A DNA stretch of 64,000 nucleotides from sequence record NC_027356.1, one strand, 5' to 3'. The notes beneath the pieces were generated by a model. The model was not told the origin of the DNA and searched no databases. It worked only from the letters and a program-made list of their open reading frames with translations. The translations under genes were made by a program, and so were the position numbers. Source of the stretch: Escherichia phage DT57C. Numbering within the stretch: the stretch's first letter is position 1; each line of letters begins with the position of its first letter. Below, piece by piece: positions 16,315-59,615 of this stretch.

Positions 16315-19104
16315 GTGTTTTCAATCCTACAAGGTCATGCAGGATTTCATCGCGATTTAGCCACAGGCAATTGGCGAGAAGTTAAAGCAGAAGATTATCT
16401 TTTTGCTAAAAGATTTTCCTCAAAGCATCCTGAAGGTAAACCAGCTTCAATGCCCTTCAAGTTTGATGTAATTGATGAAGTTGATCCTCAAACCCTAGTA
16501 GAAATGCTCCCTCTTATGAGACGTTTAACGTCTGATCCTCATATCGTTGCGGTACGAGGTCGATGTCTTGCACCTAAAAATAATGTGCGGCGTAAGAAGG
16601 GCAACTTTAATGTATCTAATCCTAGTAGTATTATTGCTATGGACGTGGATGGTATTGTAGATACAGGTGGTTGTAACAAGTTTGATCTTGTTGGCATGGC
16701 TCGTCATATTATTAGGATGTTAAATAGTATTAGTGAGGATATGTTTCCTCTTGATGCAGGGTTTATTGCTCATGCATCGTCTTCGGCTGGGCTAAAACCA
16801 GGTATCCGAATGCACTTAATACTAGAATCTAATGTTAAAGTAACTCAGGGTCAAATCAAGTTCTTATTTACATCTATCAACGAAAGTAGTAGACAAAAGT
16901 ATGGCTTTGATATTGCCGACTTAGCTTATTACTCTTCCGTACAGCTCCATTACTTTGCAGATCCTTTATTTACCGATGGTATAGTTGATCCGTTTAAAGC
17001 GGAGGGTGCTTCACGTCTGGTATTTGTTAAAGGCTCAAAAGTAAATTTACCTAATAATCTAGTTGACTATGAAACAACTAGAGGGGAGTTTAAAGAGGAA
17101 TTCTATTCTTTACTCGACCAAATTAAAGGTAAAAAAGCTGCTTCTGATAAAGTAGAGGAAACTATCAGTGAGCTAGAAGAGGCTGATGATGGGGTATACT
17201 TACGTATTATTCCAAAGCTATATCACCGAGCGTTAGAGGATGGGGTAGATTTTGGTTGGCTAGAAAAAGAAATCCGCCCAGCTTTATCAGAATATATTGC
17301 AACTAAAGATAATAGCCGTAATATTCAAGACTACTTTAACAACGGTCGAAAACAGGCTCTGAAAGCATTTGTTAATAATTCTAAACGTGATATACCCGAT
17401 GTTTTAAAAGGTATTCCGCTTAAAAAGCTAGAAACTAATTCACTAGAGACCGACAACTTCTTGAAATTAAATACTGTACCACCAGAAGGCTATATGACTT
17501 TTGTAAAAGCAAGTCTAGGTACAGGTAAAACCACGGCTGTTGTGCGTTGGTTAGATTCAGGAGTTATTAAAGGTAATTTCTTAGCAATTACCAACACTAG
17601 AGCACTGGTATCTTCAAATGCTAAGAAATTTAGTGCAGGACAATACGATAAGTCTGTAGATATGCTTAATTTTAAGCGTGGTGCTATTGACCGTATGTCC
17701 ACAACCATTCACTCTTTGCATAAGTTTAAGAGTTTTATTGGTCAAATTGATGCAATCTTTATAGACGAATGTGATGCAGTAATGAATGACCTATTATTCG
17801 CCCCCGTTGTTAAACAACGTCGTGAGTGTATTCAGGTTCTTCGTGATATTCTTGCAACTGCAAAAATCATTATACTATCCGATGGTGACATTAGTTCTGA
17901 GACGATTGAAGCATATGGTTCTTTGATTGAGTTCGATAAACCAGTTGCATTCTATAATCACCACCGTAAAATGCTGTCAAAAGCTCATGCTTATGAGTTC
18001 CCTGATGAGTCCAGTATTTGGGTTGCACTTCAGACCTCTCTAGAGATGGGTGAGAAATCTATTCTAGTATCTGATTGTGGCCCAGATGAGCTGAATGAGA
18101 AGGGTATGGCACTACGTCGTAATACTGGTGCATTAGTTAAAGAAATCCATTCAAACTCCACTTCAGATGTGGATATTCGACGTATTCTGGATTATACAAC
18201 TAATGAGCTAATTGATCAACAAATTGATTGCTTATTATGTAGTCCATCCGTAACGAGTGGAGTTGACTTTAACTATTTTGATAACGTATTTGTTATTACT
18301 AGAACCAGTAATCAGGCGCCAAACATGCGTTTCCAAGCAATCAGGCGCGACCGTGGTGCTCAGAATATCTATTATTTTATTGATAAATCCACTAGTGGAT
18401 TCTCTGCAGGTTCTGAACAATATAATATTGATGAAGGTTGGCTGGAGTTAGCGCAGCAATTATATGCACGTCGCAGGGAGCTGGAATCTAGAAACTATAC
18501 TAGTACTTTACGTTATTACTTGCTTGATCAAGGTGCAACTATTGATATTTTCAGTGAAAGCTGGGGAACTATTGAAGGTGCTGGTAAAGAATACACAGAA
18601 GAGCGAATCAAAGCTATTCTGCACTCAACTCCTGATTATTGTGCTCCACGTCATGCGGATGCGTATGAGGCTAAACTACTTATTGTTCGCTATTATCATC
18701 TTGAGTCTATTAAAGATGTAACAGTTGAGCATGTTGAACAATATATCAAAGATAAGCCGAATGATCGAGCTGCATTCTTCCATAAGATGCACGAGATGTT
18801 CTGGGAAGATATTAAGAAGTGTTCAAATGTGACCATTAAACCATTCATAGAAGCTCTGAAAGGTAAGAAGAAAGATTTCTTCCTTAAAACGGGTCAGAGT
18901 GCTAACCCAAAATATGCTAGAATGTATCTTGGTATGATGGGTATTGGTAAAGATATGAACACGGAGAATATCGTAGACTGGTACAGAACCTATTGTAAAA
19001 TCGAGTGTATGCCAATTCCTTTCAAATTTATGACAGAGGAAGAGAAGGCTATGGCAGAAGAAGCAATGTCAGAGCTAGGTGCTAGAAATGACAGTGAAGA
19101 ATAA
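16315..19104 (+). CDS. large replication protein with Walker A/B NTPase domain (origin-binding / helicase-like)
   Basis: Walker A SLGTGKTT and Walker B IFIDECD mid-protein. GTG at 16315 with AGGAG RBS preferred over the track's TTG at 16237. Confidence 0.65.
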   Translation: MFSILQGHAGFHRDLATGNWREVKAEDYLFAKRFSSKHPEGKPASMPFKFDVIDEVDPQTLVEMLPLMRRLTSDPHIVAVRGRCLAPKNNVRRKKGNFNVSNPSSIIAMDVDGIVDTGGCNKFDLVGMARHIIRMLNSISEDMFPLDAGFIAHASSSAGLKPGIRMHLILESNVKVTQGQIKFLFTSINESSRQKYGFDIADLAYYSSVQLHYFADPLFTDGIVDPFKAEGASRLVFVKGSKVNLPNNLVDYETTRGEFKEEFYSLLDQIKGKKAASDKVEETISELEEADDGVYLRIIPKLYHRALEDGVDFGWLEKEIRPALSEYIATKDNSRNIQDYFNNGRKQALKAFVNNSKRDIPDVLKGIPLKKLETNSLETDNFLKLNTVPPEGYMTFVKASLGTGKTTAVVRWLDSGVIKGNFLAITNTRALVSSNAKKFSAGQYDKSVDMLNFKRGAIDRMSTTIHSLHKFKSFIGQIDAIFIDECDAVMNDLLFAPVVKQRRECIQVLRDILATAKIIILSDGDISSETIEAYGSLIEFDKPVAFYNHHRKMLSKAHAYEFPDESSIWVALQTSLEMGEKSILVSDCGPDELNEKGMALRRNTGALVKEIHSNSTSDVDIRRILDYTTNELIDQQIDCLLCSPSVTSGVDFNYFDNVFVITRTSNQAPNMRFQAIRRDRGAQNIYYFIDKSTSGFSAGSEQYNIDEGWLELAQQLYARRRELESRNYTSTLRYYLLDQGATIDIFSESWGTIEGAGKEYTEERIKAILHSTPDYCAPRHADAYEAKLLIVRYYHLESIKDVTVEHVEQYIKDKPNDRAAFFHKMHEMFWEDIKKCSNVTIKPFIEALKGKKKDFFLKTGQSANPKYARMYLGMMGIGKDMNTENIVDWYRTYCKIECMPIPFKFMTEEEKAMAEEAMSELGARNDSEE

Positions 19105-19321
19105 AAAATGGGAAACAAGGAAGTTTCCAGTAAAAGAACGTAAAGTTCCTGTTTACGATACTTCGGAAAAGCTATGTAGGGTGGTACCACCTAGATTAGC
19201 TGGCATCCCTAACATATCCGAGTGGTTACTTAAACAACGGAGGACTAGCGTATCCCTTCGCATAGGGTTTGAGTTAGATAAAGTATATGCTGAACTTTCT
19301 TCTTTGCTCAAAGAATCATAA
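19088..19321 (+). CDS. small hypothetical protein (77 aa)
   Basis: ORF overlapping the 3' end of the large gene; no clear RBS. Confidence 0.25.
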   Translation: MTVKNKKWETRKFPVKERKVPVYDTSEKLCRVVPPRLAGIPNISEWLLKQRRTSVSLRIGFELDKVYAELSSLLKES

Positions 19322-19330
19322 AAAATTTAT

Positions 19331-19359
19331 TTGCTTTCAGGAAAATTTTTCTGTATAAT
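19331..19359 (+). promoter_or_regulatory. sigma70-type promoter (TTGCTT, 17 bp, TATAAT) with conserved leader
   Basis: ttgctt-17-tataat then cataaatttgagagaggag. Confidence 0.55.
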
Positions 19360-19390
19360 AGATTCATAAATTTGAGAGAGGAGTTTAAAT

Positions 19391-20095
19391 ATGGCTGGTT
19401 CTCGCAGAAAGAAACATATCCATGAAATCCCGGATGAAGTCTTTAAAAAGGTTATAGAGCATCTGGAGAACGGTGGTACTAAGAAAGCAGCATGTGAAAT
19501 GCTCGGCGTATCATCCAATCCGACTATGGAAAGGATGATAGAAGAGTGGCAAGATCGCCAAATTCAAGTTGCCGAGATGAAGAAAAAGAAACGTGGCACA
19601 CTCATTGAAGGCATCGAGTTAGCTAACGTTATTGAACAGTATTTATCTGGTGATTCTTTTGAAGAGATTGCCGATCGTAATTACCGCTCTGTAGCAATGG
19701 TTAAATCTGTTCTGGAACGATATGGTGCTCTACTTCGTTTAAACGATATTGTAGACCCGTTGAATCCACCAATTATTCCTGATGATGCTGTAGCAGAAGA
19801 ATTTGAAGTAGGTGAGCTAGTTTGGGTTCCTGGATACCAGTGTATCGGTGAAATCAAAAAAGCAATGGATAATCCTGTTGGTTGTTACCGTGTATGGCTT
19901 CTATCAGAAGGCAAACAACAGAACGTTCATTATATGAATTACGAGCTGGCTTCTGTTAAACATCTGGAAAAGCTAGGGGTTGACGTAAAATCTCTGGGGT
20001 ATAAATGGTCCCGGGAAGAAGTTATCACACTGATTAACGAAGCTGTTAAGGCTGCCTTGAAACTTGATAAAGAAAAAGGAAAACGCCGTGAGTAA
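19391..20095 (+). CDS. helix-turn-helix DNA-binding protein
   Basis: Two HTH-like segments (TKKAACEMLGVSSNPTMERM; SFEEIADRNYRSVAMVKSVLERYG). Confidence 0.55.
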   Translation: MAGSRRKKHIHEIPDEVFKKVIEHLENGGTKKAACEMLGVSSNPTMERMIEEWQDRQIQVAEMKKKKRGTLIEGIELANVIEQYLSGDSFEEIADRNYRSVAMVKSVLERYGALLRLNDIVDPLNPPIIPDDAVAEEFEVGELVWVPGYQCIGEIKKAMDNPVGCYRVWLLSEGKQQNVHYMNYELASVKHLEKLGVDVKSLGYKWSREEVITLINEAVKAALKLDKEKGKRRE

Positions 20096-20442: not shown

Positions 20443-20853
20443 ATGACTACTCCAACTCAGTGGACTGATGAACTGTTCGAAAAAATGTCTTCCGAATACG
20501 TTGCTCGTATGGAGCAATTCCCAGAGGATGAACGTCCGAGTGTTAGCATGGAAATTGTTAGTGAAATTGCCCAGGAAAATGGTGTAACTCCGAACGGTTT
20601 TCGTATGAAGCTGACTAAAGCAGGTTTGTATATTAAGAAAGCTGCTGGCTCTGCTTCTAAATCTAGTGCATCTACTGGAGAAAAAGCTTCCGGTGGTTCT
20701 CGTACCTCCAAAGCCCAGGCTCATGCCGACCTTCGTTCAGCGTTCTCTGATGCTGGCTTAGCACCAGATTTTCTGGATGATGCAATTATCGACAAACTGA
20801 CCGGTAAAGCGGCTGCTCATCTGGCAGAAGCAATCCGAGCTATCACTAAGTAA
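20443..20853 (+). CDS. hypothetical protein (136 aa), host-optimised codon usage
   Basis: AAGGA RBS; codon choice (ctg, cgt, ggt, tct) unlike neighbours; Ala/Ser/Gly-rich linker; shares a motif with 23739..24506. Confidence 0.55.
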   Translation: MTTPTQWTDELFEKMSSEYVARMEQFPEDERPSVSMEIVSEIAQENGVTPNGFRMKLTKAGLYIKKAAGSASKSSASTGEKASGGSRTSKAQAHADLRSAFSDAGLAPDFLDDAIIDKLTGKAAAHLAEAIRAITK

Positions 20854-21599: not shown

Positions 21600-21800
21600 A
21601 TGGCAATGACAGTAACACTTCCCAAGATTCAAGCAAAACTTAATCTGCTTTCCACAGCACGCATTAATTATCAAGATAACATAGGCACAGTAAATCAAAA
21701 GGCGTACAAAGATGCGTTTCTGAAAGAATCTGCTGATTTGATGGATATGGTTACACAATATAATAAAGAACTCAAGATGGAAATCGCCGATGATGAATAA
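21600..21800 (+). CDS. small hypothetical protein (66 aa)
   Basis: ATG at 21600 (GAGAGGA RBS) preferred over the track's ATG at 21585, which lies inside the RBS. Confidence 0.45.
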   Translation: MAMTVTLPKIQAKLNLLSTARINYQDNIGTVNQKAYKDAFLKESADLMDMVTQYNKELKMEIADDE

Positions 21801-22764
21801 TGTAAAAGGCTTTATTAAGCGTTGTCAAGAAGCATATTATCAAGGCATGTCTTTAATCTCTGATGAAGAATATGATCGCCTAGTAAAACGCTTCCCGTTA
21901 GAGGAAGAGATCGGGCCTAAGGGTGATATTCCACATCTGTACCGTATGTATTCTTTACAGAAAGTTTATTATAATCGTGGAGATAAACCCCCATTTAACC
22001 CATTAGGTCAAGTAGAAACTGATAAGTTAGATGGTTGTGCAATTTCCTTATTATATATTAATGGCGAATTTGTTCAAGCATTAACTCGTGGTAACGGTAT
22101 TCTAGGTAATGATGTCACAAGCAACGTAAGATTGCTGAACATCCCTAAAAAGATTTCTCAAAAAGTACCTACTCAAATCACTGGTGAAGTTCTAATTACA
22201 AAAGAAGTAGAAAATAAACGTAACTTTGCCTCTGGTGCTATTAACCTCAAAGATAGTGATGATTTCGTACAGCGTATCGGGGAAGGTGGTTTAATCTTCG
22301 TTGCATACGGTATCCAGTGTTCTGCTGAATCTGTAGGTATTACAGAAGCGTATTTAAAAGATATGCTTTGGCTAGAGAATGAGAACTTCTTAACAGTTGT
22401 TAATGTACGTTCCTTCTTTAAATGGATTCCAACGGACGGTAAAGTTGTTCGTATTAATGATAACAACAAATTCTTCCGTGAAGGCTGGACTAATAAATTT
22501 CCTCGCGGTGCATTTGCTATTAAAGAGGATGAAGAAGGTGAGACTACAACTCTTACTAAAGTTGAATGGAATGTAGGGGCTTCTGGTAAAGTAACTCCAG
22601 TCGGTTATTTTGAACCAGTAATTATTGATGATGCTACAATTGTTAAAGCGACTCTTAATAACGTTGATTATATTAACTCTCTCGATCTAGAGATCGGTTG
22701 CCAGATTCGAGTGATTCGTGCTGGTGGTGTAATCCCGTGCATAGTAGAGCGAGTTTACGATTAA
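21790..22764 (+). CDS. NAD-dependent DNA ligase, N-terminal (adenylation) part
   Basis: Adenylation KxDG motif (KLDGCAIS) and downstream nucleotidyltransferase/OB-fold region; ends in a stop with 200-bp gap before the C-terminal half. Confidence 0.8.
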   Translation: MMNNVKGFIKRCQEAYYQGMSLISDEEYDRLVKRFPLEEEIGPKGDIPHLYRMYSLQKVYYNRGDKPPFNPLGQVETDKLDGCAISLLYINGEFVQALTRGNGILGNDVTSNVRLLNIPKKISQKVPTQITGEVLITKEVENKRNFASGAINLKDSDDFVQRIGEGGLIFVAYGIQCSAESVGITEAYLKDMLWLENENFLTVVNVRSFFKWIPTDGKVVRINDNNKFFREGWTNKFPRGAFAIKEDEEGETTTLTKVEWNVGASGKVTPVGYFEPVIIDDATIVKATLNNVDYINSLDLEIGCQIRVIRAGGVIPCIVERVYD

Positions 22765-22814
22765 TACATAACCCTTTGCTACCCCTCTACCATATCGGAA
22801 TTATAAAGTGGTTA

Positions 22815-22843
22815 TTGACATTTTCGCCGCTTAGGTATATACT
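22815..22843 (+). promoter_or_regulatory. sigma70-type promoter (TTGACA, 17 bp, TATACT) in the ligase gap
   Basis: ttgaca at 22815-22820, tatact at 22838-22843. Confidence 0.5.
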
Positions 22844-22907
22844 ATTATCATTCAGTTGAGGGATAGAAAGTTATGGCGAGGGTAAGCAAAGTTAGTTAAA
22901 ATTGTAG

Positions 22908-22936
22908 TTGCTAAATGCTTAAATACTTGCTATAAT
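22908..22936 (+). promoter_or_regulatory. sigma70-type promoter (TTGCTA, 17 bp, TATAAT) in the ligase gap
   Basis: ttgcta-17-tataat then conserved leader and GGAAG RBS. Confidence 0.55.
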
Positions 22937-22966
22937 ATTTATATAAATTGATAAGGAAGAAATTTG

Positions 22967-23746
22967 ATGAAAATCGAAATTCCAACACAATGTCCCTCTT
23001 GTGGTTCTAAGCTAGATCTTGTCAACGGACAATTATTCTGTCGTAATAAGTCCAACTGTCCAGCGCAATCAAGTAAGTTAATTGAGAACTTCTGTTCAAA
23101 AATGAAGTTAAAGGGCTTTGGCCCGAAAACTATTGAGAAGCTGGAGCTGACGAAGATTTCAGAACTATTTTACCTAACCGAAGAAGATTTGGTTAGAGCC
23201 GTGGGTAGCAAGGTTGCCGCTAAGTTAATTAGCGAATTAAATACTAAAGTTCGCGGAGACATTGACTTTGGTTCAGTTCTCGGTTCTTTAGGAATCCCTC
23301 TAATTGGAGAGGTTGCAGCAAAGAAATTATCCCAAAATTGCACTAGCTTCCACGATGTGAAGGCTGACGGCAAGGCTGGAGAAAACTATAAAGCCTGGCT
23401 AAATTCCCCACAAGGCAAGGATGTTATCGAATTACCGTGGAAATTCTCAAATGGTATTAAAGGTGCTAAAGCTGACATCATCATTACAGATGAATTAGTT
23501 GCCCCGCCAAATGGAATCACGGTGTGTATTACCGGATCTTTGCAAGATTTTGCAAATCGAACGGATGCAACAAACTATCTAGAAGGTCTAGGGTATACTG
23601 TTAAAAAATCAGTTACCAAAGACGTTAAATACCTCATCTGTGAGGATGAATCTAAGCGTTCTTCCTCATCTTATAAGAAAGCCGAAACGAATGGGATAGA
23701 AATCCTGTCGATTAAAGAACTATTGGAGAAAAATAATAATGTCTAA
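22967..23746 (+). CDS. NAD-dependent DNA ligase, C-terminal part (Zn finger, HhH, BRCT-like)
   Basis: Four-Cys zinc finger CPSCGS...CRNKSNCPAQ near N-terminus, HhH-like GIPLIGEVAAKKL, BRCT-like C-terminus; ATG at 22967. Confidence 0.8.
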   Translation: MKIEIPTQCPSCGSKLDLVNGQLFCRNKSNCPAQSSKLIENFCSKMKLKGFGPKTIEKLELTKISELFYLTEEDLVRAVGSKVAAKLISELNTKVRGDIDFGSVLGSLGIPLIGEVAAKKLSQNCTSFHDVKADGKAGENYKAWLNSPQGKDVIELPWKFSNGIKGAKADIIITDELVAPPNGITVCITGSLQDFANRTDATNYLEGLGYTVKKSVTKDVKYLICEDESKRSSSSYKKAETNGIEILSIKELLEKNNNV

Positions 23747-24506
23747 ACTGAACTGGAACGTAGAAGGTGTAACCGAGTCTCTGAAAGCAAAAGCCACTGC
23801 TCTGGGTGTTGCTGTAATCTCTCAAGAACAAGTAGCTGCTATCGCTGCTGAACTGGCTGCTGAAACTGGCAAAGACGTTACCGCTCGCTCTGTTGGCTCT
23901 AAGCTGCGTAAAGAAGGTTTCGAAGTACAGAAAGCTAACGAAGTACAGAAATCCCCGTGGACTCCTGAGCAGGAAGCTGAACTGGTTGATTTCCTGAACT
24001 CTCATGCTGGTCAGTATACTTATGCTGAAATCGCTGCTGCTGTAGCTGGTGGTCAGTTCGGTGCTAAACAGGTACAGGGTAAGATCCTGAGTCTGGAAAT
24101 GACCGCCTCTGTTAAACCAACTGAAAAAGCTGCTGCTGTTCGTTCCTTCACTCCGGATGAAGAAACTGATTTTGTTAATCAGGTTGTTGCTGGTGCTACT
24201 ATTGAAGCTATCGCTGCCCACTTCGGTCGCAATATTAAGCAGATCCGTGGTAAAGCTCTGAGTCTGCTTCGTGAAGGTCGTATCGCCGCTATGCCGGTAC
24301 AGGAAACTTCAAGTGCTAAAACTCGTGAAGATCTGCTAGAAGGTCTGGATCTGGCTAACATGACTGTTGCTGAGATCGCTGAGAAAACTGGTAAGTCTGA
24401 GCGCGGTGTTAAATCTATGCTGTCTCGTCGTGGTCTGGTTGCTAAGGACTATGATGGTGCCGCTAAGCGTGCTAAACTGGATGCAAAAGCTGCGGCTGCT
24501 GAATAA
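23739..24506 (+). CDS. hypothetical repeat protein (255 aa), host-optimised codons; possible abundant DNA-binding protein
   Basis: Four copies of a roughly 30-aa motif (IAA...G.....V.GK.LSL); strongly E. coli-preferred codons; GGAG RBS; strong terminator follows. Confidence 0.6.
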   Translation: MSKLNWNVEGVTESLKAKATALGVAVISQEQVAAIAAELAAETGKDVTARSVGSKLRKEGFEVQKANEVQKSPWTPEQEAELVDFLNSHAGQYTYAEIAAAVAGGQFGAKQVQGKILSLEMTASVKPTEKAAAVRSFTPDEETDFVNQVVAGATIEAIAAHFGRNIKQIRGKALSLLREGRIAAMPVQETSSAKTREDLLEGLDLANMTVAEIAEKTGKSERGVKSMLSRRGLVAKDYDGAAKRAKLDAKAAAAE

Positions 24507-24522
24507 TCTGGTAAATTAAACC

Positions 24523-24558
24523 TAAGGGGAGGGGGCTATGCTCCTTCCCCTTTTTGCA
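24523..24558 (+). terminator. rho-independent terminator
   Basis: GC-rich hairpin aaggggagg...ccttcccctt followed by ttttt. Confidence 0.6.
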
Positions 24559-24588
24559 TTTAGAAGGCACGAAAGCGTGCAAAGGAGA

Positions 24589-31637: not shown

Positions 31638-31922
31638 ATGCTTACAGAGCCTGATGCTCACCAATTATTGGTCGGTTCCTCATTCATTTTGAATGAATCA
31701 ACAATAGTTGATAATCCAAATAAATTGTCTAATAGACAACTGGCAGAATATCTAGGAATTTTAAGTCTACGAAATTATGCCGAATACAAGTTTACAAACG
31801 ATCCTAGTTTGGACATACAATATGTTCCAGTATGGATACCACGTTTAGTAATCGACACTAACCCACTAATCGCAATTAACAAATCGAAATTAATCTTTAA
31901 AGAGGAAATAAAATATGGCTAA
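31638..31922 (+). CDS. hypothetical protein (94 aa), weak
   Basis: ORF without a recognisable RBS. Confidence 0.3.
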   Translation: MLTEPDAHQLLVGSSFILNESTIVDNPNKLSNRQLAEYLGILSLRNYAEYKFTNDPSLDIQYVPVWIPRLVIDTNPLIAINKSKLIFKEEIKYG

Positions 31923-32688
31923 GTCTTGGGGCGAAACTACTGGCGGTTCTAACGATAAAATCGAATTCCTGAAGTTCAACAACGGTATCACTCGTGTTCG
32001 TATCGTTTCTGGTGTTCTTCCACGTTATGTCTATTGGCTGACTAATAAAGAGGGTGGCGTAGCTCCTTTCGAATGTCTCCGTTTTAACCGTGACAAAGAG
32101 AGTTTTGTTCGTGGTAAAGCTGATCCGGTTCATGAGATGGGCTTCTTTGAGAAAGAGCTGGATAAAGATGGTAATCGTGTTCCACTGAAACCGAAGAAAA
32201 ACTATATCGCTTTTGTTATCGACCGTTCTGATAACAAACTGAAAGTAATGGAAGTCAAAGCTACTATTCTGAAAGGCATCCAGTCTATCATGAAGCAGTT
32301 GAATCTGGCAACCCCGTTTGATATTGATATTTCTATCGAGAAAAAAGGCAAGGGTTTCGATACTGAGTATGATGTACAGCAGATTGCTGCTATGCAGTTC
32401 CAGATTAAGCTGCAAGATCCTAACAGTGCAGAATCTAAGCAATATGCTGCGGATGTAGATCTGATTGGTGAAGCTATGTGTGATGAAGATGGCGACATCA
32501 TTAAGTTCGAAAAAGTTCCTTCCCTGGAACAAACCTATCCGGTTCCTACCTATGAAGAGCAGAAAGAAGCAATTCAAGCCTTCATGGAAGGTCGTGAGAA
32601 TAAAGATGATGATGCCAAATCTGGTAACAGCAATGCTGGTTCCCAGAAAGGTATTGACCAAGAAGCTGCAAGCGATCTGGACGACTAA
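31915..32688 (+). CDS. putative DNA-binding protein with acidic C-terminal tail (SSB-like), highly expressed
   Basis: GAGGA RBS; strongly host-optimised codons; acidic C-terminus (DQEAASDLDD); terminator follows. Confidence 0.6.
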   Translation: MAKSWGETTGGSNDKIEFLKFNNGITRVRIVSGVLPRYVYWLTNKEGGVAPFECLRFNRDKESFVRGKADPVHEMGFFEKELDKDGNRVPLKPKKNYIAFVIDRSDNKLKVMEVKATILKGIQSIMKQLNLATPFDIDISIEKKGKGFDTEYDVQQIAAMQFQIKLQDPNSAESKQYAADVDLIGEAMCDEDGDIIKFEKVPSLEQTYPVPTYEEQKEAIQAFMEGRENKDDDAKSGNSNAGSQKGIDQEAASDLDD

Positions 32689-58238: not shown

Positions 58239-59615
58239 TTAAGATGCAGCGTAAGCACCGGATACAACGCCGTTCTCGAAGTAACGTTGCAGGTTAACAC
58301 GCTGAGTAACGTAGTATGCGTCACGCTGTTTGCCAGCTTGGCGCTCACGTTCAACAGTAACAGCACGCTGACGTGGCATCACGAAGTTATCTTTATAAAC
58401 AATAACTGCGAACTCTTTACCAGCTGCTTTAGCTGGGAAGTACTCAGAAACTACAACCGGCAGACCATAAATACGACCAACCTGACCCTGCAGTTTAACA
58501 GCATCATTACCAACCTGAGCAACATCCTGCCATTCTTCATCTTCCAGCAGATCGTAGTAAGCATCCATAGATACAATCAGTACCAGTTTGGACAGTTTCA
58601 GACCATGACGGCCCAGCTTACGACGCAGTTTAGAGATAGTTTTAGCAGTTACCAGAACAGAACCATCAGCTTTAGCTTCGGTAGTAACTTTAGCACTATC
58701 TTCACTAGCAAGAGTCAGCAGACCTTTCGGCTTACCAGAACCATCACCAGTCATGAAGGCTTCTTCAATAGAAACAGCGTGTGCTTCAATTAGACGCTTA
58801 CGAAGCAGTGGCAGCAGGGAGAAGATTGCATCTTCTTCAGTTTCATCAGTAATGAAGGATTTAGCAGCCAGTTTGTAAGTACTGAAGTGGATTTCTGTAA
58901 GAGCGCCTGTAACTTCGCTACCAGTAGTATTGTCACTACCATAAGCAGAAGCAGCAACCCAAGTAGCTCTACCAGCATCCGGTTCAACCAACATAGTAAG
59001 AATCTTACTGGACATCGGCAGTTCTTCGAACAGTGCGCCAACTACTAGCTCTTTCTGCAGGTCACGGATAATACGCTGAGAGAAAATAGTTTCATAGCTT
59101 TCACTAGAAACTTCTACAGAAGAGGACTGATTCACTGCTTTCAGGTGTTTTTGACCGTGTTCGGTTTCGAATACGCCTTTTTCCATTACATAGGACAACA
59201 GAACCAGTTTTTCTACTTCGTCTTCAAAGGTTTCCTGAGTACCGTACAGTGCTTTAGCAACACTATCACCAACGAAGGAACGACCTTCACGAGCTGTTAG
59301 CAGAGACTTAATTTCGTCCTGAAGACCAACAATAGTTTCCTGTTGTTTTTCTACAGTTTGTGCAAACAGTTCTGCACTCTTCTTAGATTTCTCATCCAGA
59401 GACTTAACCAGTTCCAGAGCTTGTTCCAGTTTCTGACGATCTTCGCCAACTGCTTTAGAAACCAGGGCATTCATACGAGCCAGTTCTTTTTCTTCCTGCT
59501 CTTTACGCATACGTTCAGCTTCCTGAGCTTTCTGAGCAGCGGTCAGACCTTCCAGAGATTTAGCCAGATCACCCAGACCAAGTTCTTCTTTCAGCTTATT
59601 AATATCAATAGTCAT
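58239..59615 (-). CDS. major capsid protein (HK97-fold, pb8-like)
   Basis: 458 aa; coiled-coil scaffold-like N-terminal delta domain followed by capsid core. Confidence 0.8.
   Translation of the reverse strand: MTIDINKLKEELGLGDLAKSLEGLTAAQKAQEAERMRKEQEEKELARMNALVSKAVGEDRQKLEQALELVKSLDEKSKKSAELFAQTVEKQQETIVGLQDEIKSLLTAREGRSFVGDSVAKALYGTQETFEDEVEKLVLLSYVMEKGVFETEHGQKHLKAVNQSSSVEVSSESYETIFSQRIIRDLQKELVVGALFEELPMSSKILTMLVEPDAGRATWVAASAYGSDNTTGSEVTGALTEIHFSTYKLAAKSFITDETEEDAIFSLLPLLRKRLIEAHAVSIEEAFMTGDGSGKPKGLLTLASEDSAKVTTEAKADGSVLVTAKTISKLRRKLGRHGLKLSKLVLIVSMDAYYDLLEDEEWQDVAQVGNDAVKLQGQVGRIYGLPVVVSEYFPAKAAGKEFAVIVYKDNFVMPRQRAVTVERERQAGKQRDAYYVTQRVNLQRYFENGVVSGAYAAS

Follow-up and report, generated by a model that had tools for sequence, protein, structure and literature searches.

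The open reading frame (ORF) at positions 23739–24506 of the 64,000-nt stretch of DNA analyzed here (the window) is, essentially certainly, gene D5 of the Tequintavirus (T5-like) phages. The encoded protein is predicted to consist of four small three-helix helix-turn-helix (HTH) domains, of the type seen in the GcrA DNA-binding domain (DBD) and in sigma region 4, followed by a short C-terminal helix. We favor the reading that D5 is probably an abundant, non-specific double-stranded DNA (dsDNA) coat of phage DNA that remodels the template. Knowledge of this gene dates back to the 1970s and no new entity is added; the additions made here are modest and comprise the four GcrA-DBD or sigma-region-4-like modules, their variable number, and the conserved codon bias and gene layout.

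The D5 ORF encodes 255 amino acids, with a computed mass of 27.0 kDa and a pI of 6.8. Compared with T5 D5 (T5.118, YP_006946.1), the protein has equal length and 252 of 255 identical residues, the only substitutions (window residue first) being A25D, S88A and A206V. The nearest gene is D5 of DT571/2, with 99.7% nucleotide identity. PHROG 323 (“transcriptional regulator, D5-like”) was matched at an E-value of 1.7e-71 across amino acids 1–253. Homologs were detected in 901 phage records, 894 of which had at least 80% query coverage, and some of these records label the protein “late gene transcription factor” or “D5-like transcriptional regulator.” As in T5, ligB lies upstream and the D6 helicase gene downstream of D5, with a terminator at the same position; the T5 homing endonuclease genes hegI and hegJ are absent from the window phage. 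The interval between ligB and the D6 helicase gene, within the early replication cluster, holds D5 in the window phage, DT571/2, T5, Sugarland, PM135 and River4, and the order ligB, D5, helicase, primase, polymerase is kept in Sugarlandvirus, Novosibvirus and Thalassavirus. An antisense ORF of 169 amino acids (23712–24221, minus strand) falls wholly inside the conserved D5 coding region and has no independent support. We rejected it as a gene; the richness of the sense strand in GCT and CTG is the likely source of this open frame.

In the excerpted note of the T5 record, D5 is described as a DNA-binding protein that is needed for DNA replication and late transcription and is also involved in expression shutoff. 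Its characterization as a DNA-binding protein in 1979 is credited to McCorquodale et al. (J Virol 29:322) in a later article (PMC12630848). Judged by its sequence, the window protein is the dsDNA-binding early protein of T5-like phages.

The initial annotation had reported a sharp switch to codons used in highly expressed E. coli genes together with a GC content above that of the neighboring genes, and both are real. Leucine is encoded by CTG at 17 of 19 positions, glycine by GGT at 17 of 19, alanine by GCT at 37 of 45, serine by TCT at 10 of 16, asparagine by AAC at 5 of 7, isoleucine by ATC at 8 of 10 and glutamine by CAG at 10 of 12; arginine uses CGT at 9 of 12 positions and CGC at the other three. 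With codon adaptation index (CAI) weights from 28 E. coli K-12 genes (ribosomal-protein genes, EF-Tu, EF-G and rpoA), D5 scores 0.768, the highest value among 50 window ORFs (mean of the others 0.377, sd 0.098, maximum 0.699). Sharp-Li weights gave 0.703 for D5 vs. 0.290 ± 0.092 for the others, and the two weight sets correlate with r = 0.98. The change is abrupt when CAI is calculated for blocks of 40 codons: values are 0.28–0.45 in ligB, 0.58–0.84 in D5 and 0.16–0.49 in D6, where a single block reaches 0.70. The effective number of codons (Nc) of D5 (30.4) is the minimum of the 50 window ORFs (others 45.8 ± 5.3). These values place its codon bias on par with that of E. coli ribosomal-protein genes.

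The GC content of D5 (0.479 vs. 0.397 ± 0.031) ranks second among the 50 window ORFs. GC3 is ordinary (0.332 vs. 0.310 ± 0.054 for the others) and GC1 is high (0.660 vs. 0.512 ± 0.047). The rise lies in first rather than third codon positions because 17.6% of the protein is alanine, compared with 7.2% ± 2.9% in the others. We considered and rejected the GC rise as a sign of foreign origin, given the ordinary GC3 and the status of D5 as a conserved core gene of the family.

Codon bias of this kind recurs in relatives. The Nc of D5 is the minimum of its neighborhood in Proteus phage PM135 (36.8 vs. 46.9 ± 3.4) and in Vibrio phage River4 (30.7 vs. 45.4 ± 6.7), and in Klebsiella phage Sugarland it is one of the three lowest values. 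Strong bias is otherwise seen in the genes for a D11-like single-strand-binding protein (SSB), the D3 DNA-binding protein and the major capsid protein, each of which is needed in large amounts. D5 therefore appears to be under selection for high expression, conserved in relatives that infect other hosts. A tRNA scan of the 64,000-nt window detected no tRNA genes to which the codon choice of D5 could be related.

The transcription unit that contains D5 comprises the following features:

22815–22843, plus strand: equivalent of T5 P-K28b, an early sigma-70 promoter and the first of a tandem pair for ligB-D5 (TTGACA-17-TATACT; 11/12 in the promoter scan)
22908–22936, plus strand: equivalent of T5 P-K28a, an early sigma-70 promoter (TTGCTA-17-TATAAT, with an extended -10 TG; promoter scan)
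22967–23746, plus strand: ligB, small subunit of NAD-dependent DNA ligase, with low codon bias, overlapping the start of D5 by 8 nt
23725–23728, plus strand: GGAG, a possible Shine-Dalgarno core with an A-rich spacer after it, 10 nt before the D5 ATG, read from the sequence
23739–24506, plus strand: D5, an exact ORF with an ATG start and a TAA stop
24524–24557, plus strand: intrinsic terminator with a 13-bp stem, a 3-nt loop and a U-tract

The region 22765–22966 is identical at 201 of 202 nt to the T5 stretch annotated with P-K28b and P-K28a, which bears out the earlier assignment of D5 to the early class. A tandem promoter pair occurs at the matching position in PM135, and the Sugarland record has a ribosome-binding site annotated at the corresponding relative place. 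From this arrangement, ligB is probably co-transcribed upstream of D5 from both promoters. The terminator had been called strong, and so it is predicted to be: the hairpin (24524–24552), which is followed by TTTTTGCATTT, has a folding energy of -24.1 kcal/mol, and none of 200 shuffled sequences was as stable. A hairpin with a U-tract also follows D5 in Sugarland (-25.3 kcal/mol), PM135 (-23.5) and River4 (-19.1), so that the terminator is conserved in four genera. The ligB-D5 unit probably ends here, and the terminator should keep transcription from running on into the helicase and primase genes to a low level. The layout of promoter, ligB, D5 and terminator, together with the extreme codon bias, is conserved from Escherichia to Vibrio phages.

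We infer the abundance of D5 from its codon bias and from proteomic data on the virion preparations of a relative. Rice et al. are said to have reported in 1979, in J Biol Chem, that purified gpD5 binds dsDNA cooperatively. In virion preparations of phiR2-01, a T5-like phage of Yersinia, all proteins in the top spectral-count class are structural except one, the ortholog of D5 (PMC8624392). A recent preprint, in which D5 is reported as a retron trigger, describes T5 D5 as a 26-kDa monomer by mass photometry, finds that its expression on its own is toxic to E. coli, and reports binding to a retron msDNA stem-loop (bioRxiv 10.64898/2026.07.11.737809); these three properties fit a general duplex-binding protein. 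No fitness value specific to D5 is given in the main text of the CRISPRi-ART paper. DRT4 is triggered by a “phage-encoded DNA binding protein” that was considered as D5 and rejected, as it is T5 ORF55 (PMC12783706). The suggestion of a very abundant early protein that possibly binds DNA is supported. It was made from codon bias, amino acid repeats and a terminator in the raw sequence and proved correct for D5, which serves as a clean positive control.

The protein had been described as four copies of a repeat of about 30 amino acids with the motif IAA...G.....V.GK.LSL. The four copies stand, and at the DNA level they form a repeat family at 23840, 24017, 24197 and 24362, with spacings of 177, 180 and 165 nt. 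The unit length does not: the period is 55–68 amino acids, and the motif of about 30 amino acids is only the core of each unit. Moreover, only units 2 and 3 carry the literal motif in full. Unit 1 has “SK” in place of “GK,” unit 4 has “IAE” and a shifted lysine, and “LSL” is missing from both. Profile comparisons between units (hhalign) gave probabilities of 96% for units 2 and 3 (E = 2e-9), 76% for units 3 and 4 (E = 2e-5) and 40% for units 1 and 4 (E = 3e-4).

Structure prediction with AlphaFold2 resolved the repeats into four three-helix HTH units. The model is essentially all-alpha, with 13 helices and no strand of at least three residues. Its pLDDT of 92 and pTM of 0.49 suggest confidently predicted domains whose mutual arrangement is not fixed. 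The predicted features are:

23748–23921, plus strand: HTH unit 1, amino acids 4–61, helices 11–22, 29–43 and 49–58 (AlphaFold2, family alignment)
23952–24098, plus strand: HTH unit 2, amino acids 72–120, helices 76–88, 95–101 and 109–118 (AlphaFold2, family alignment)
24141–24278, plus strand: HTH unit 3, amino acids 135–180, helices 139–150, 155–162 and 166–178 (AlphaFold2, family alignment)
24318–24440, plus strand: HTH unit 4, amino acids 194–234, helices 210–217 and 221–231 (AlphaFold2, Pfam)
24456–24500, plus strand: conserved C-terminal helix GAAKRAKLDAKAAAA, amino acids 240–254 (AlphaFold2, family alignment)

In the family alignment, invariant residues concentrate in the third helix of each unit. 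The predicted recognition helices are ARSVGSKLRK in unit 1 (invariant R50, K55, L56 and R57), KQVQGKILSL in unit 2 (Q113, G114, K115 and L117), IKQIRGKALSL in unit 3 (G171 and K172) and ERGVKSMLSRRG in unit 4 (G223, L228 and R231). These third helices have a net charge of +1 to +4, whereas the entire domains are neutral or acidic. The C-terminal helix is preceded by invariant D237 and G240 and is possibly a partner-binding tail. The number of modules can vary in the family, as a D5 variant with five units is present in a metagenome.

Comparison with known domains points most clearly to GcrA and sigma region 4. Unit 3 aligns end to end with GcrA residues 1–49 (hhalign probability 86%, E = 5.5e-6), with G171-K172 of D5 opposite G38-K39 of GcrA, which contact DNA in the crystal structure (PMC5887438). 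Units 1, 2 and 4 align weakly with GcrA (probability 5–14%), so that unit 3 is the most GcrA-like. The Pfam GcrA family (PF07750) was not matched by the window D5 even at an E-value of 10, and only 4 of 35 D5 family members matched it at E ≤0.01. Unit 4 matches Pfam Sigma70_r4_2 (E = 5e-7, 29.7 bits vs. a cutoff of 25.7) over amino acids 204–230, a match that spans 27 of the 54 model positions (23–49) and is shared by 32 of the 35 family members. Unit 1 has weak Pfam matches to HTH_33 and the Tc3 HTH, and unit 2 has a weak match to Myb_DNA-binding (18.0 bits vs. a cutoff of 24.4, amino acids 71–100 only). An NCBIfam search gave nothing near any cutoff. A PDB sequence-profile search, run for the whole family and separately for unit 3, identified no solved relative and did not recover GcrA; its weak HTH matches were an engrailed design (E = 0.0085) and TraR (E = 0.005). 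The designed repeat protein 8vd6 was discarded as a relative, as it was matched through low-information repeated “EEIAE.LG.S” segments.

We propose that the tandem strong early promoters would transcribe D5 along with ligB until the intrinsic terminator halts transcription and that, with near-optimal host codons, this would yield stoichiometric rather than catalytic amounts of protein. With as many as four recognition helices placed in consecutive major grooves, each monomer could then bind dsDNA with low sequence specificity, and at high copy D5 would coat the injected and replicating phage DNA. A template coated in this way would account for the three known D5 phenotypes, namely its need for phage DNA replication, its need for late-gene switch-on and its part in early-gene shutoff. 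Several points speak against a coat. Sequence-specific recognition could explain just as well why the recognition helices are so strictly conserved. The pI of 6.8 is unlike that of basic coat proteins of the HU or H-NS type. Finally, a viable retron-escape phage carries W74* plus three further D5 mutations (10.64898/2026.07.11.737809), a finding that fits poorly with an essential coat protein of four domains, unless the stop is leaky, suppressed or present in a mixed population.

Alternatively, D5 could be a sequence-specific late-gene activator or sigma-70 cofactor whose HTHs read late-promoter elements and which recruits or re-programs host RNA polymerase, as GcrA or T4 MotA do, with the replication defect being secondary. 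We regard this as possible but unlikely. The likeness of the units to the GcrA DBD and sigma region 4, the conservation of D5, which is highest in the recognition helices, the need for D5 in late transcription stated in the excerpted T5 note, and the regulator labels on homologs all favor it, and the T5 switch from early to late genes still lacks a known mechanism (PMC7472727). However, D5 has no counterpart of the sigma-interacting domain of GcrA or of sigma region 2, and the T5 proteins reported to co-purify with RNA polymerase (60, 11, 90 and 15 kDa, and gpT5.026) include none of about 27 kDa. Moreover, a site-specific factor does not need codon optimization at the level of ribosomal proteins conserved across hosts, and replication requires D5 as well.

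It is less likely still, and in our view improbable, that the main role of D5 is in the replisome, where it would bind duplex DNA as an accessory partner of the T5 polymerase or helicase at nicks or origins. The transcription phenotypes would then be indirect, since late transcription depends on replication. The gene lies directly upstream of the helicase, primase and polymerase genes in a conserved order, it shares its codon bias with the SSB and D3 genes, and its conserved C-terminal tail could bind a partner. Fujimura and Roop reportedly found in 1983 that gpD5 affects T5 polymerase on duplex DNA. On the other hand, four HTH domains match no known clamp, loader or processivity architecture, and early-gene shutoff is listed as a separate phenotype in the excerpted T5 note.

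There is very little chance that D5 is a sigma factor, an SSB or a DNA mimic, despite a Sigma70_r4_2 match above the gathering cutoff on amino acids 204–230 and annotations in existing records: it scores only 15.2 bits against the sigma superfamily model TIGR02937 (cutoff 42.9) and has no Sigma70_r2 match at E ≤10, a model also absent from the families common to most of the 35 relatives; the all-alpha model has no OB fold and the family SSB is the separate D11-like gene, although one record annotates D5 as an SSB; and its charge is balanced (34 K+R vs. 34 D+E), whereas mimics are strongly acidic. The structural-mimic option of the initial annotation, taken as DNA mimicry, therefore does not agree with the near-neutral pI and the all-alpha HTH domains. 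The retron preprint does describe mimicry, but of an msDNA-binding winged-helix protein (10.64898/2026.07.11.737809), which means that D5 acts there as a DNA binder.

A broader form of the coat reading would make D5 a phage “chromatin” protein, an array of four GcrA- or sigma-region-4-like modules that is produced in bulk, coats the T5 genome and serves as both the long-sought early-to-late switch and a DNA shield. This is speculative and rather unlikely. If true, D5 in the major grooves, including those of -35-like elements, would silence the strong early sigma-70 promoters and license late ones, and the coat would protect replicating phage DNA from host methyltransferases and nucleases. Such shielding could explain the under-methylation of BF23 and T5 DNA, which has been discussed as unexplained (PMC10644984), and abundance with generic duplex binding would be the reason that a retron senses infection through D5. 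With the early-to-late switch unexplained and D5 reported as a retron trigger, its mechanism is worth testing.

Among known systems, GcrA offers a comparison at the domain level. The Caulobacter crescentus GcrA DBD (PDB 5YIU, residues 1–45) folds into a compact bundle of three helices, the second and third of which make up an HTH that enters the major groove, and it was reported to be structurally near sigma region 4 (PMC5887438). Three-helix domains of this type are present in D5, and both proteins share the pattern aromatic-T-x-D/E-E, then G-x-S/T-x-x-x-I-A, then V/I-x-G-K-x-x-x-L. GcrA, which favors methylated GANTC sites, has a single DBD, a long linker and a C-terminal domain that interacts with sigma-70 region 2, whereas D5 has four DBDs and a 15-amino-acid helix, without the sigma-interacting domain. 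D5 is thus built from GcrA-like modules but is not a GcrA family member. The region 2 and region 3 architecture of sigma-70 is likewise absent. The c-Myb R2R3 domains, the Timeless DBD (6TAZ) and the bipartite domains of Tc3/Mos1 are also three-helix HTH arrays with flexible linkers that occupy consecutive major grooves. Unit 2 of D5 begins with a Myb-like W-T-x-E-x-E, but each unit has a single conserved aromatic position (W6, W74, F137), so that the Myb tryptophan spacing is not found. D5 lacks the regular tryptophan triad of Myb repeats and the catalytic domain of transposases, and all its Myb/SANT and transposase-type matches are below family thresholds.

By analogy, the nearest functional parallel of D5 may be p6 of phi29, an early dsDNA-binding protein that forms complexes with the entire viral genome; p6 is essential for replication and also modulates the switch from early to late transcription (PMC4974454). 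We found no sequence or fold relationship between the two. They also differ in form: p6 is small and self-associates along DNA, and D5 is a 27-kDa monomer with four HTHs that would coat the genome. The set of p6 phenotypes matches that listed for D5 in the T5 record.

The 255-codon ORF at 23739..24506 on the plus strand (ATG start, TAA stop) was matched by megablast in 515 phage genome records. The top match was in Escherichia phage DT571/2 (99.7%), where the gene is annotated as "D5 protein/DNA-binding protein." The protein shares 252 of 255 residues with D5 of phage T5 (T5.118) and matches PHROG 323, "transcriptional regulator, D5-like" (E-value 1.7e-71). On sequence comparison, these matches identify the window as a segment of a Tequintavirus genome and the ORF as gene D5. 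The family comprises 590 cluster representatives (50% identity) at E-values up to 0.001 and 77 at up to 1e-30. The T5 record describes D5 as a [quoted passage not shown] and also mentions shutoff of expression, which bears out the DNA-binding protein raised as a possibility in the initial annotation.

That annotation also described a sharp switch to E. coli high-expression codons. Using codon adaptation index (CAI) weights built from 28 E. coli K-12 genes (ribosomal-protein, EF-Tu, EF-G and rpoA), D5 scored 0.768, the highest of 50 ORFs in the window and about 4 sd above the remainder (mean 0.377, sd 0.098). The reference genes span a range that includes this value. The ranking was unchanged with Sharp-Li weights (r = 0.98 between the two weight sets), and Nc, which is independent of any reference gene set, reaches its window minimum in D5 (30.4; other ORFs, 45.8 ± 5.3). 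The codons originally listed do dominate (CTG 17/19, CGT 9/12, GGT 17/19, GCT 37/45, TCT 10/16 and AAC 5/7), and usage shifts sharply at both the 5′ and 3′ gene borders. GC content is raised, as claimed (47.9% versus 39.7%); GC3 is ordinary, and the excess lies in first codon positions because the protein is 17.6% alanine. An antisense ORF wholly within D5 (23712-24221, minus strand, 169 aa) had no independent support and was rejected as a gene; we interpret it as a side effect of the GCT/CTG-rich, strongly biased sense strand.

After D5, strong host-like bias was found in three other genes:

20443-20853, plus strand, D3 DNA-binding protein (CAI 0.61, Nc 36.8)
31915-32688, plus strand, D11-like single-strand-binding protein (CAI 0.67, Nc 34.6)
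58239-59615, minus strand, presumed major capsid protein (CAI 0.70, Nc 32.7)

Given this set, codon bias in these phages follows proteins required in bulk. D3, D5 and D11 are also the most biased genes in the corresponding neighborhoods of Klebsiella phage Sugarland and Vibrio phage River4, and the Nc of D5 is lowest or nearly lowest in its neighborhood in both phages and in Proteus phage PM135. High spectral counts of the D5 ortholog are reported in the literature for phiR2-01 preparations.

The D5 start shares 8 nt with the end of ligB, in the following context:

21790-22764, ligA, one half of an NAD-dependent DNA ligase
22765-22963, ligA-ligB spacer of 200 nt, carrying the strong early promoters P-K28b and P-K28a
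22967-23746, ligB, the other ligase half
24524-24552, D5 terminator hairpin (13-bp stem, U-tract, folding energy -24.1 kcal/mol)

The spacer matches the T5 region annotated with P-K28b and P-K28a at 201 of 202 positions, supporting the earlier claim of an early gene; the predicted strong terminator is likewise present. Both promoters scored 10-11/12 in a promoter scan, which detected no promoter-like sites on the plus strand between them and the D5 start. Two strong early promoters in this spacer would make ligB and D5 a unit separate from ligA and more strongly transcribed. From the promoter positions and the terminator, the unit would thus open with the two early promoters in tandem, continue with ligB, which has poor codons, and D5, which has optimal ones, and end at the terminator; genes for helicase, primase and polymerase follow. 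Gene order is kept in Sugarland, PM135 and River4, all three have a hairpin and U-tract 3′ of D5, and PM135 has tandem promoters 5′ of ligB as well.

The annotated ATG of the D6 replicative helicase (24538; likewise in the T5 and DT571/2 records) falls within the hairpin loop of the D5 terminator. In Sugarland, PM135 and River4, D6 starts with M-[Y/I]-N-V-Q-A, which aligns with codon 20 of the window D6. The true start is probably TTG 24595, 7 nt 3′ of AAGGAG (24582-24587), or ATG 24589, giving a D5-D6 spacer of ~88 nt. The HNH homing-endonuclease genes hegJ and hegI of T5, where hegJ separates D6 from the primase gene and hegI comes after the origin-binding helicase gene, are missing from the window; the counterpart sites there are 26058 and about 19100-19400. 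As in DT571/2, D6 (end 26061) directly overlaps the primase gene (start 26058).

Four copies of a ~30-aa repeat had been claimed. The number is upheld by a four-copy DNA repeat family (spacing about 59, 60 and 55 codons), by unit-versus-unit profile matches (R2-R3 96%, R3-R4 76%, R1-R4 40%) and by AlphaFold2 (pLDDT 92), which predicted four three-helix units (aa 11-58, 76-118, 139-178 and about 205-231) and a C-terminal helix (aa 240-254). The length is not: from the spacing and the predicted units, the ~30-aa motif is modeled as the helix 2-turn-helix 3 core of a ~60-aa unit. The literal motif IAA...G.....V.GK.LSL is complete in units 2 and 3 but incomplete in units 1 and 4.

Linker 1 contains an 18-nt tandem duplication (23914-23949, 83% identity) encoding FEVQKA/NEVQKS; it is old, as the pattern EVQKA.E..K is kept across the family. 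A metagenomic homolog (P0122, 309 aa) has five HTH units, with unit 2 doubled in tandem as two FTYAE(L/I)A...KQVQGK.L..KLT segments; the D5 array is therefore modular, with a changeable number of modules. Distant matches to the D5 profile include long proteins (P0238, 599 aa; P0265, 465 aa; P0235, 692 aa; P0249, 515 aa; P0259, 1570 aa) in which a similar three-helix HTH unit recurs 6-10 times in tandem, following the pattern [YFW]-[ST]-x-E-[DEQ]...G.s...IA...G.S...V.

Pfam returned only HTH-clan matches, a different family for each unit: HTH_33 and Tc3 (unit 1), Myb (unit 2) and EutK_C and HTH_28 (unit 3), all below cutoff, and Sigma70_r4_2 (unit 4), the sole match over its cutoff. A sequence-profile search of the PDB found no solved structure related to D5. 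Residues 2-47 of GcrA align with unit 3 (hhalign probability 86%), and its DNA-contacting G38-K39 line up with the invariant G171-K172 of D5. Across 35 relatives, invariant residues cluster in the third helix of every unit. In GcrA, this domain folds as a bundle of three helices, binds the major groove through its HTH and is itself close to sigma region 4 (PMC5887438). D5 has no counterpart of GcrA's sigma-interacting domain or of sigma-factor region 2, and so belongs to neither family.

Gene D5 has long been known, as have its phenotypes and the DNA binding of its product; binding, replication and late-transcription phenotypes of T5 D5 are documented in the literature. The initial inference from raw sequence was essentially correct. 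A 2026 preprint reports that type IX retron-Kva2 is triggered by T5 D5, a ~26 kDa monomer found to be toxic to E. coli and to bind a retron msDNA stem-loop (bioRxiv 10.64898/2026.07.11.737809). One escape phage carried the D5 changes G53D, W74*, V149I and G232D (bioRxiv 10.64898/2026.07.11.737809). Residues G53 and G232 map within or immediately after the unit 1 and unit 4 recognition helices. The viability of a phage with W74* is at odds with the classical picture of D5 as essential.

We consider it more likely than not that D5 is produced in stoichiometric quantity and forms a coat on phage double-stranded DNA, each monomer contributing as many as four groove-binding helices, and that the coated template would support replication, shut off early promoters and permit late transcription. 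The main rival, in which D5 would activate late genes in a sequence-specific way or serve as a cofactor of sigma-70, would suit the GcrA-like and sigma-region-4-like modules. It appears rather unlikely, however, as D5 has no RNA-polymerase-binding domain, no ~27 kDa protein is among those reported to co-purify with polymerase, and such high expression would be needless for a site-specific factor. A purely replisome-accessory role is improbable. A sigma factor, an SSB or a DNA mimic, the last corresponding to the structural mimic once suggested, is very improbable, each having failed tests for its defining features.

Neither the four-module GcrA-like architecture nor the cross-genus conservation of the expression design was found in the literature searched; together they refine a known protein and bear on the T5 early-to-late transcription switch. 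For DNA coating by D5, phi29 p6 offers a parallel, as a protein acting through a coated template on replication, early shutoff and late transcription.
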